DNA of 34,079 nucleotides from positions 1 to 34,079 of the forward strand of contig CALVRY010000001.1 in NCBI GenBank assembly GCA_944358755.1. The letters are read 5' to 3'. Every line of letters begins with the position of its first letter. Positions within the stretch are counted from its first letter, which is position 1. This document shows, in pieces, positions 18,079 to 18,881 of the stretch. Under the pieces are notes generated by a model, which was not told the origin of the DNA, did not search any database, and saw only the letters and a list, made by a program, of their open reading frames with translations. Both the position numbers and the translations under genes were made by a program. This DNA comes from an uncultured Bacilli bacterium (GTDB lineage Bacteria > Bacillota_I > Bacilli_A > RFN20 > CAG-826).

Positions 18079-18702
18079 ATGTCTTTAAATAAGAAAATTT
18101 ATTCACATTTTGAAATAAATAGTGGAAGTGACATAAAAATTGATGATTTTGTACTAGATTTATTAAAAAACACTATAAAAAGTGATAAAAGGGTGGCACA
18201 TTCCATAAGTGTTGCTAATTTAGCTTATAAAATAGCGCTTGGCAACAATTTGAATGACCCTTTTTATTATTACTTAGCAGGGCTATTTCATGATATAGCT
18301 AAAGGAATCGACAAAAAAGAAGCAGTAAAGCTCATGAATTTGCATTATAAAGAGTATTTAGATTTGCCTGCTTTCTCATATCATCAATTTTTAGGCGAAT
18401 ATTTAACCAAAAAACTAATTGGAATAGAAGATAATGCGATACTTGATGCGATTAAGTTTCATTGTACAGGAAAAGCAAATATGACGAGTTTAGACAAAAT
18501 CATTTACGCATCAGACAAAATCGATCCTTTAAGAGGTTATGATTCTAGCGACATGATTAATTCGATGCTAGAAAATCACGAAAAAGGTTTTTTATATGTC
18601 TTAGACGAAAATCATAAATTTCTTATAAATAAAACAAATGATTTAAATTCAGTTAATAATAGATTATCTAGAGAATGCTTCGAATATTATCTTAAAAAAT
18701 AG
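18079..18702 (+). CDS. yqeK: HD-domain protein YqeK (bis(5'-nucleosyl)-tetraphosphatase family)
   Basis: 207 aa with H...HD metal motifs (AHSISV, LFHDIAK, FHCTG). It occupies the Bacillus yqe operon position and ends in TAG TAG. Confidence 0.8.
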   Translation: MSLNKKIYSHFEINSGSDIKIDDFVLDLLKNTIKSDKRVAHSISVANLAYKIALGNNLNDPFYYYLAGLFHDIAKGIDKKEAVKLMNLHYKEYLDLPAFSYHQFLGEYLTKKLIGIEDNAILDAIKFHCTGKANMTSLDKIIYASDKIDPLRGYDSSDMINSMLENHEKGFLYVLDENHKFLINKTNDLNSVNNRLSRECFEYYLKK

Positions 18703-18721
18703 TAGTTTTTTCTTATATGTT
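18700..18721 (+). repeat. degenerate half-copy of the TAGTA element
   Basis: TAGTAGTTTTTTCTTATATGTT matches 18 of 22 positions of TAGTAGTTTTCTAGTATATGTG from array B. It starts with the yqeK stop codon and ends 1 nt before the dif-like site. Confidence 0.55.
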
Positions 18722-18722
18722 C

Positions 18723-18750
18723 ACTTCGTATAATATCTATTATGTAAATT
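18723..18750 (+). other. dif: dif-like chromosome dimer resolution site (Xer target)
   Basis: The sequence is ACTTCGTATAA-TATCTA-TTATGTAAATT. By hand alignment to sequences recalled from memory, it matches 24/28 positions of B. subtilis dif and 20/28 of E. coli dif. It lies at the convergence point of the plus-strand and minus-strand gene blocks. Confidence 0.7.
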
Positions 18751-18754
18751 TTTG

Positions 18755-18807
18755 AAGAAAAAAGACGATTATTATCATATGTTTTTTATATCATAATAAA
18801 TCGTCTT
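18755..18807 (-). terminator. long AT-rich hairpin, likely terminator for the 183-aa gene
   Basis: AAGACGATTATTATCATAT (18762-18780) pairs with ATATCATAATAAATCGTCTT (18788-18807), with one bulge and one mismatch. On the minus strand it is followed by TTTTTT. Confidence 0.5.
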
Positions 18808-18843
18808 ATAAATTATATTATAAATAAACTAATTTTTCTCAAT

Positions 18844-18881
18844 TACTATTTATCTACTAATAATCTACTAATTATCTACTT
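18844..18881 (-). repeat. phased TAGTA array D (4 units)
   Basis: The minus strand reads AGTAGATAAT|TAGTAGATTAT|TAGTAGATAAA|TAGTAATTGAG. On the plus strand, TACTA/TACTT occurs at 18844, 18855, 18866 and 18877. The array lies 3' of the 183-aa gene and 94 bp from dif. Confidence 0.8.

Follow-up and report, generated by a model that had tools for sequence, protein, structure and literature searches.

Termination at replication fork traps is known from the lineages of Escherichia coli, where the terminator protein is Tus, and of Bacillus subtilis, where it is RTP (2023 review, PMC10331603). How the terminus is organised is an open question in most bacteria, including the large uncultured groups of genome-reduced gut Bacilli. 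Proteins that organise the terminus, such as MatP, likewise have a narrow distribution. Rok, a nucleoid protein and xenogeneic silencer of B. subtilis, oligomerises and anchors chromosomal loops. The plasmid partition centromeres (parC of R1, at whose 11-bp repeats ParR binds, and tubC, to which TubR binds) are helically phased arrays of direct repeats, bound cooperatively by small dimers. REP and BIME elements combine roles at the level of DNA (binding of gyrase and IHF) with others at the level of RNA, i.e. the formation of mRNA 3′ ends and effects on translation when the element lies near a stop codon. Here we analyse a stretch of 34,079 nucleotides (nt) from an uncultured Bacilli bacterium (contig CALVRY010000001.1; the window), and in particular a family of short repeat arrays with the core TAGTA that are found around its dif, the XerC/XerD chromosome dimer-resolution site. 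The window spans a replication terminus of the chromosome, with the peak of cumulative GC skew at 18-19 kb and a change of gene orientation from the plus to the minus strand at the same place. The arrays are real and conserved, and we have found no published description of them; a literature search returned no relevant report of TAGTAG or of an 11-bp terminus repeat, or of replication in the RF39 group. Our preferred reading, to which we assign a probability of about 0.4, is that the arrays are cooperative protein-binding sites on duplex DNA that mark the terminus region, rather than a proven fork trap.

The window contains five intergenic arrays (A to E) and two phased runs of TAGTA inside genes. 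Array A (7314-7373, plus strand) has about six looser units and extends from the stop codon of cshA to over that of ispG. Array B (10203-10229, minus strand) has three units, starts 4 nt after the plsY stop codon and is followed by a terminator hairpin at 10140-10167. Array C (16060-16086, plus strand), also of three units, lies at the end of the spacer of ~340 nt between parC and yqeG, 18 nt before the yqeG start codon. Array D (18844-18881, minus strand) is the one beside dif. It comprises four 11-bp units (AAGTAG or TAGTAG) with the sequence AAGTAGATAAT TAGTAGATTAT TAGTAGATAAA TAGTA, and has a TRF score of 60. The three units of array E (24717-24743, minus strand) fill the xseB-dinB spacer, beginning 1 nt after the xseB stop codon and ending 5 nt before the ATG of dinB.

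The repeat has a strict period. Pairs of TAGTA on the same strand within 40 nt are separated by 11 nt (11 pairs) or 22 nt (8 pairs), with almost no other spacing. Seven arrays were observed in the window and none in twenty shuffles of it, so that as a family the TAGTA arrays are far beyond chance. The two runs inside genes probably did arise by chance. One of these lies in aspS (29750-29787, minus strand), where four TAGTA-like units can be read only in the single frame without stops; the parts of aspS covered in L149 and L207 contain no called array, and the run is probably not a functional array. Array A was found in this genome only, none being called between cshA and ispG in L153, L172 or L190.

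A logo was constructed from the 195 units of 49 non-redundant arrays of the lineage. This gave the consensus Y-TAGTA-G-W-T-W-W, where G at position 6 is present in 64% of units, T at position 8 in 81%, and a pyrimidine before the unit in ~90%. G or C is nearly excluded from the spacer between the cores. The arrays have between three and six units (once eight), all with the 11-bp period.

Related arrays were sought by a pattern scan of 185,579 species genomes and then by an exhaustive scan of metagenome contigs for arrays with AT-rich spacers. Together these gave at least about 45 loci of this low-GC lineage, besides unrelated microsatellites and a separate family in the Bacteroidales. Synteny with the window was established using the window proteins in tblastn searches, plus tblastx. 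Among the array-selected loci an array occupies the same place after plsY (array B) in eight, between parC and yqeG (array C) in five, beside dif (array D) in five and between xseB and dinB (array E) in five; the count for B includes L171, which was judged by similarity of its flank, and that for E includes L144. Overall, orthologues of array B were found in L131, L134, L153, L171, L172, L173, L190, L201, L207 and L210, those of array C in L004, L105, L138, L144, L173, L201, L207 and L210, and those of array E in L002, L125, L138, L144, L149 and L207. Three further species were picked by their homologues of a 183-amino acid (aa) protein encoded beside dif, and not by their arrays; arrays B, C and D are present in all three, and E in one of them.

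Orthologous arrays persist beside genes whose proteins are only 30-60% identical. The letters of the spacers drift, while TAGTAG and the 11-bp register are constant. TAGTAG is under purifying selection as the spacers diverge.

The dif site (18723-18750, plus strand; ACTTCGTATAATATCTATTATGTAAATT) is 28 bp in length with an 11 + 6 + 11 layout, comprising the left arm ACTTCGTATAA, the centre TATCTA and the XerD-type arm TTATGTAAATT. It is identical at 24 of 28 positions to the published dif of B. subtilis, ACTTCCTAGAATATATATTATGTAAACT (PMC3025954). The 28-mer occurs once in the window and coincides with both the peak of cumulative GC skew and the switch of gene strand. A Xer recombinase gene, xerD (22625-23509), lies 4 kb away. 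The site has a sequence like those of its phylum and a position at the terminus with xerD encoded nearby, and in relatives it is also used by integrating elements.

Two such elements were seen in relatives. In L105 (6084-7300), which is 91% identical to positions 12626-18744 of the window, the homology ends inside dif at a hybrid site ACTTCGTATAATAT|TAGTTATGATTACT, and is followed by an open reading frame (ORF) for a Zot-family P-loop protein (Pfam PF05707); Xer recombination has here inserted an inovirus-like element into dif. In L208 (10705-16102), of the same species as L207, a microvirus prophage (with Phage_F capsid, Chlamy_scaf and Rep) lies between array D and yqeK. Its edges are the hybrid dif AATTCTTTTATTATCTATTATGTAAATT and a perfect dif, and array D is still attached to the XerD-arm half-site. 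The two integrations bear out that dif is functional.

Unexpectedly, the arrays are enriched in the region of dif. The exhaustive scan yielded 27 loci of the lineage, of which 13 are syntenic with the 34-kb window. Six more are linked to dif (L176, L178, L185, L162, L181 and L183), being on contigs with window-syntenic loci or orthologous to such loci, so that 19 of the 27 are dif-linked; the remaining eight are unplaced. Counting only arrays beyond the one by which each locus had been selected, there are 19 in 180 kb of dif-syntenic loci and 2 in 160 kb of other loci, an approximately 8-fold higher density of additional arrays around dif. In the UMGS732/OJML01 assembly, four of six strict arrays lie on a 113-kb contig that carries window-syntenic genes. 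The conserved core, i.e. arrays B, C, D and E, falls within -8.5 to +6 kb of dif. What the arrays display is enrichment at the terminus and not exclusivity.

Array D is located 93 nt from the XerD arm of dif, and 9 nt past the stop codon of the 183-aa gene. Reading along the minus strand the order is stop codon, 9 nt, array D, 36 nt, terminator and dif. This intrinsic terminator belongs to the minus-strand operon whose last gene is the 183-aa one, and is a stem-loop of 46 nt (18762-18807, minus strand) with the U-tract UUUUUUCUUC at 18751-18761. The calculated folding energy is -27.3 kcal/mol (z -3.9, with none of 200 shuffles as good), these values referring to the whole 145-nt stretch 18751-18895 and not to the hairpin alone.

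On the left of dif there is a degenerate single-unit relic (18700-18721, plus strand; TAGTAGTTTTTTCTTATATGTT), in which the first TAG of the only TAGTAG is the stop codon of yqeK. It is alike at 18 of 22 positions to the distal part of the plsY array (array B) plus its flank. Four windows in the whole sequence score 18/22 and the other three are true arrays, which upholds the resemblance noted in the original prediction; the positions given there for dif, array D, the hairpin and this half-copy were likewise all correct. Taken on its own, the relic is weak evidence. It is kept only in L105, and is absent in L002, L132, L138, L144 and L201.

It had been proposed that dif is bracketed by two copies of the element. 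The right-hand side of this stands. An array to the right of the XerD-type arm and pointing toward dif is present in L002, L132, L138, L144, L149, L201, L207 and L210, that is, in all eight relatives in which a dif was found. With the window this makes nine loci, which represent eight independent lineages as L138 and L207 are from the same species (their array-dif spacers are 96% identical). The left-hand side does not stand. The pair around dif in the window is a conserved array D together with a decayed, non-conserved relic at the yqeK stop codon. The broader view that this is an organised terminus locus and not random spacer is supported by the presence of the right-hand array beside dif in eight lineages, and by the enrichment in the dif region.

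The distance between dif and the array is nearly fixed. It measures 93 nt in the window and in L210, 94 nt in L138, L207 and L132, and 92 nt in L201, which gives a range of 92-94 nt for five lineages; two others have 124 nt (L002 and L144) and one has 80 nt (L149). Between lineages the identity of the intervening sequence is only 52-76%. L144 lacks the 183-aa gene and has deoB next to dif on the right, and the dif-side array is still present; the array is thus tied to a position beside dif and not to one gene. These properties raise the possibility that array D is an accessory site for Xer recombination. A protein bound some nine helical turns from the XerD arm would aid synapsis, directionality or the control of dif-integrating elements, and at the other arrays this protein would be put to unrelated uses. 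The near-constant distance in five diverged lineages, the retention of the array with the XerD-arm half-site upon integration of the microvirus in L208, and the independence from the flanking gene in L144 are all in keeping with this. Against it, gaps of 124 and 80 nt also occur, and a conserved terminator hairpin could by itself fix the gap. Chromosomal dif sites are not known to need accessory sequences, and those of plasmid Xer sites lie on the XerC side. It is the spacing on which such a role rests, and we regard it as very doubtful.

The direction of the arrays bears on a second possibility, that of a polar replication fork trap. In this a terminator protein bound to the arrays would allow forks into the dif zone but not out of it, as with Tus or RTP at Ter. 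Arrays cluster to the left and to the right of dif, and in every genome examined the two closest to it, C and D, point toward each other across the site. The arrays are asymmetric direct repeats and are thus intrinsically polar, and the B-site of RTP also contains TACTAA. The location of dif between the innermost sites is as found in the known traps (PMC10331603). Yet strict polarity is not observed. Arrays C, D and E obey it, but array B, the best and most widely conserved, is oriented as D and E and lies to the left of dif, so that it points away in 11 loci. parE-parC would then lie enclosed by B and C, with a face that blocks outward on each side; for two strong barriers this is untenable. 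An array between an ftsL-like gene and ftsA in five genomes (L162, L181, L183, L185 and L211) also has the opposite polarity. It points away from the expected position of dif, is antisense to both of its neighbours and is on the lagging strand; on the UMGS732 contig it is ~53 kb from the plsY array. Further antisense arrays are found in L052, L175 and L169, of which the first two also break the polarity rule. In addition, the switch of GC skew coincides with dif itself, isolated arrays are present elsewhere in the genome, and no Tus or RTP family was reported among the 23 window ORFs scanned against NCBIfam or Pfam. We therefore consider a fork trap quite unlikely. Inward pointing, which had been put forward as a feature of the copies next to dif, fails as a rule because of the arrays after plsY and at ftsL-ftsA. 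Where arrays do point inward this is a by-product of their co-orientation with flanking genes, since the genes are convergent at the terminus.

If the arrays are protein-binding sites that mark the terminus region, they may be viewed as short extragenic iterons specific to the lineage, with three to six direct repeats placed one helical turn (11 bp) apart. A small protein would bind several units cooperatively along one face of the helix. Once bound, it might mark or organise the terminus through compaction, anchoring, topological or segregation functions, and not as a strict one-way gate. Its sites would be concentrated within tens of kilobases of dif, with one at ~93 bp from the XerD arm. 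We infer from the following properties that the ligand is a protein, that it is DNA rather than RNA which is read, and that binding would serve functions of this kind.

Binding of a protein to duplex DNA best explains the combination of a one-turn register, constraint that goes beyond the stop triplets, occurrence in both orientations, absence of RNA structure, indifference to promoters, and enrichment around dif at a near-fixed distance. A role at the DNA rather than the RNA level is indicated by the conserved arrays that are antisense to both flanking genes on the lagging strand, and by the folding of the arrays, none of which is better than its shuffles (z -1.1 to +0.5). A hairpin within the arrays was rejected as an explanation on the same grounds. 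Architectural sites are favoured over operators by the finding that the arrays lie as readily between convergent genes that lack a promoter as in 5′ regions. A protein fold that could read the core is known. The winged helix of Rok reads AACTA or TACTA via the minor groove, and TACTA is a high-affinity pentamer (PMC6212790); the invariant TAGTA of the arrays is its reverse complement. This likeness is an analogy, and should be taken as a lead and not as a test.

A number of observations weigh against this reading. The enrichment comes from array-selected loci and partial contigs, and not from a closed genome. There are single arrays after groEL, htpG, lepA, cobB and mnmA, and another is on a viral contig, so the element is not terminus-specific. 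About 75% of the arrays have the same orientation as the gene that ends 0-30 nt before them, and most start between -6 and +30 nt from the stop codon of such a gene. The arrays fill short spacers, and C and E come up to the start codons of yqeG and dinB (0-18 nt), which have no Shine-Dalgarno sequence. The units contain stops in all three frames on both strands (TAG TAG forward, and TAC-TAR in reverse). The occurrence of TACTA outside the arrays is 0.43 of that expected from base composition, and 0.90 of that expected from an order-3 Markov model, so that no depletion is left after correction for the bias of shorter words. No binding protein emerged: the scan of 23 window ORFs that gave no Tus or RTP also gave no MatP family, and in the gene tables of sample contigs, which cover most of the window, the Pfam families are all housekeeping ones. 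Closeness to stop codons, the abutted starts and the stops in all frames would be explained more directly by a role in RNA or translation.

The viral contig is L169, which is the same as L215 (an IMG/VR contig of 39 kb, classed as viral). It has one array of the lineage type that lies between small ORFs and is antisense to them. A scan of viral contigs returned one lineage-like match, identical to L169.

A role in RNA or translation could take the form of an element at gene boundaries. UAGUAG every 11 nt might act as a six-frame stop or insulator, or as the site of an RNA-binding protein that sets mRNA ends or the translation of the next gene. Each unit is TACTAR on the reverse strand, so that the arrays carry stop codons in all six frames, and the presence of stops in all frames on both strands would account for the conserved pyrimidine before each unit. 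In several of the arrays that lie close to a sense stop codon, the first or second TAG is that codon. Arrays B and D are transcribed, since they lie between a stop codon and a terminator hairpin. Arrays C and E occupy what would be the ribosome-binding region of the following gene, and in L138, L201, L207 and L210 the last unit of array C overlaps the ATG of yqeG (TAGT-ATG); a Shine-Dalgarno sequence is present in about half of the window genes. The presence of arrays after genes as unrelated as groEL, htpG and lepA also fits. However, TAG alone is used although TAA is the commoner stop codon. Stop codons need neither a strict 11-nt register nor a conserved G6 and T8, and the AT-rich spacers are already rich in stops. 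The conserved antisense arrays would yield RNA with UACUA, and both the clustering around dif and the fixed distance from it are left unexplained. We hold this to be a possible reading, but one that is somewhat unlikely. Were it true, the arrays would be a non-palindromic functional analogue of REP, whose concentration at the terminus would need explaining.

The arrays might alternatively be operators of a transcription factor, e.g. a direct-repeat binder of the OmpR/PhoB type or one like MraZ, with a regulon near the terminus by chance that includes the yqeG operon, dinB-xerD, ftsA-ftsZ and glyQS. A hexamer with a 5-bp spacer in two to five direct copies is the classical site of a winged-helix response regulator, and arrays C and E, the ftsA array and that of L184 are just upstream of genes. 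By contrast, about a third of the independent arrays lie between convergent genes without a promoter to control (among them A, B, D, L030, L034 and L082), and the genes concerned have no function in common. Canonical MraZ repeats were found separately, as three copies of AAGTGG at a 10-bp period immediately upstream of mraZ in L185 (reverse strand) and in L211 (9620-9654). Operators are thus very unlikely. The more specific proposal of MraZ sites was rejected, since the canonical AAGTGG repeats are elsewhere, the TAGTA array of the same cluster lies between ftsL and ftsA, and the arrays are not GTGG repeats. Inspection of the arrays also revealed no convincing -35/-10 pair, and a sigma-70 promoter was therefore rejected. 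DnaA boxes were rejected because the reverse-complement unit TTATCTACT mismatches two invariant positions of the box and only some units are box-like.

A sequence that does resemble a DnaA box, ATGTGGAAAA, lies directly after array B (10192-10201, minus strand), with one mismatch (TGTGGAAAA compared with TGTGGATAA). Taking the window together with L002, L131, L132, L153, L172, L190 and L201 as the loci that bear it, this motif follows the plsY array in seven loci; in L002 and L132 it comes after the array beside dif. An inverted pair of the motif, TGTGGAAAA...TTTTCCACA, is present in L131 and L172. The motif is not enriched in the window overall.

We also considered that the repeats might be polar sequences of the KOPS or SRS kind, which orient FtsK/SpoIIIE and guide the translocase to dif. 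The skew of words was measured in the window (1-34079) and the oriented dif flanks of L002, L132, L134, L138, L144, L149, L173 and L201. TAGTAG is skewed toward dif by 77:22 over 125 kb of oriented flanks, and array D is the repeat closest to dif. Far stronger polarity was measured in this test for GAAGAAG (71:5) and AGAAGAAG (29:0), and TAGTAG ranks only about 80th among hexamers, which is no better than the bias in gene orientation. Known KOPS, moreover, are single 7-8-mers spread through the genome, and not phased arrays. This reading of TAGTAG was rejected on the ranking, and we attach almost no weight to it.

The words that converge most strongly on dif are GAAGAAG, AGAAGAAG and AAGAAG (236:31), a property confounded with coding-strand bias. 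GAAGAAG and AGAAGAAG match the lactococcal KOPS. These three words are candidate FtsK/SpoIIIE-orienting sequences of the lactococcal type.

The 183-aa gene next to array D (18891-19442, minus strand) is an orphan restricted to the lineage, and where present it is always the first gene to the right of dif. Only nine homologues of the protein were found among 5.8 billion proteins, it has no match in Pfam, NCBIfam, PHROG or PDB, and a search of JGI metagenomes for related loci with it found none. An AlphaFold2 model has a pLDDT of 38 and is unusable. The invariant CPIYPKS and IRYVNKKRF-like stretches recall the PemK/MazF fold, and a comparison with B. subtilis EndoA/MazF by hhalign was not significant (probability 0.2%). 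As a candidate for the protein that binds the arrays it was set aside on these results, i.e. the lack of a family, PDB or PHROG match and the non-significant comparison with EndoA/MazF.

The window has a G+C content of 29%. It uses the standard genetic code, with TGA and TAG as ordinary stop codons; an alternative code was excluded by the conserved genes, which are full length under code 11. Among the matches listed, the nearest public relatives, which are metagenome-assembled genomes, bear the labels uncultured Mollicutes, uncultured Bacilli or Candidatus Onthovivens. The genes to the left of dif are, in order, dnaG, sigA, trmK, NIF3, ispH, cshA, ispG, rpmG, MBL, efp, yneF, plsY, parE, parC, yqeG, yqeH, yhbY and yqeK. 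To the right are the orphan 183-aa gene, an ABC permease, a 344-aa gene without an assigned role, deoB, xerD, dinB, xseB, xseA, nusB, dxs, aspS and hisS. A scan of the window with Rfam gave no family at threshold, and a tRNA scan gave none. The spacer between parC and yqeG (15762-16104) has an ORF of 78 aa without a family match, and has no Rfam match; no comparable ORF was called in the corresponding gap of L199-L201, L207 or L210. With array C at its end, this spacer is probably a leader or promoter that encodes no protein.

The TAGTAG arrays of Bacteroidales and Prevotella, which dominated the first scan, were rejected as relatives. They are a different family, with other spacers and flanks and no link to stop codons. 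In Bacteroidales/Paludibacteraceae (L001, L003, L007, L010, L019, L037, L085, L089 and at least about 40 others) there are many copies of a different 11-bp array, TAGTAGGTGAT/TAGTAGGTTAT, with four to eight units, often with TAGTATG units before it and GGTTATAATCGGT..CATC after it. The unit of this array contains AGGTGAT, which is complementary to the 3′ end of 16S rRNA. The Prevotella loci L028, L029, L090, L101 and L103 have arrays of the TAGTAGAGGTT type in common, and in L028, L029 and L101 these are upstream of a conserved sequence like AAAACTTGCAAAT. This suggests that the arrays of these three loci are an upstream element of one orthologous promoter.

Arrays flank parE-parC, and another lies upstream of ftsA-ftsZ. 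A bolder form of the terminus-marking reading is that this is a third and unrelated kind of bacterial terminus system. TAGTAG iterons of 11 bp would be the sites on which an oligomeric protein polymerises, one of them placed some nine helical turns away from the XerD arm. In wall-less or reduced gut Bacilli this protein would link the terminus region with replication termination or the pausing of forks, with decatenation or the resolution of dimers, and perhaps also with division. We consider this form speculative and unlikely. In practical terms, a short cis-element that is under purifying selection near dif, at a near-fixed distance from the XerD arm, provides a handle by which a partner protein might be found.

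The TAGTA arrays, which we take to be terminus-associated protein-binding repeats, can be compared with several known systems. Like Ter, which functions with RTP in Bacillus and Tus in the Enterobacterales, they are asymmetric, non-coding and clustered to either side of the terminus; dif lies between the two innermost sites, and arrays C and D converge on it. They differ in being three to six phased 11-bp direct repeats, where Ter is a single or bipartite site of 23-30 bp, in their broken polarity after plsY and at ftsL-ftsA, in their single occurrences elsewhere, and in that no terminator-protein gene was found among the window ORFs scanned. The matS sites of the enterobacterial Ter macrodomain, to which MatP binds, are likewise repeated, enriched at the terminus, intergenic or neutral, and need not have a particular orientation; the arrays would similarly mark a domain. 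Nevertheless matS is a 13-bp palindrome bound by a dimer, whereas the arrays are direct repeats that are not exclusive to the terminus, and no MatP was reported among the window ORFs scanned.

The preference of Rok for TACTA (PMC6212790) corresponds to the reverse complement of the array core. Homologues of Rok, by contrast, are reported only in some Bacillus species, its sites do not form phased arrays, and this DNA shows no specific depletion of TACTA. The REP and BIME elements of enterobacteria resemble the arrays as short multicopy elements that lie after stop codons, in 3′ UTRs (untranslated regions), between convergent genes and between cistrons. The arrays do not fold, whereas REPs, as imperfect palindromes, do; nor are REPs enriched at the terminus.

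The MraZ-binding repeats share with the arrays the presence of three or more direct repeats at a 10-11-bp period, and in that case are bound by a ring-shaped oligomer; the TAGTA arrays differ from them in both core and period. A BLAST search with an idealised array gave no match in 72,556 plasmids and none in phages, a result to which the low-complexity filter may contribute. The closest architectural analogue is provided by the iterons of partition centromeres, which are also direct repeats of ~11 bp at helical phase. There the repeats number ten or more, whereas the arrays here have three to six units and are chromosomal and dispersed. By this analogy, the architecture of the TAGTA arrays is that of iterons such as those of ParR on parC, or of the MraZ repeats.

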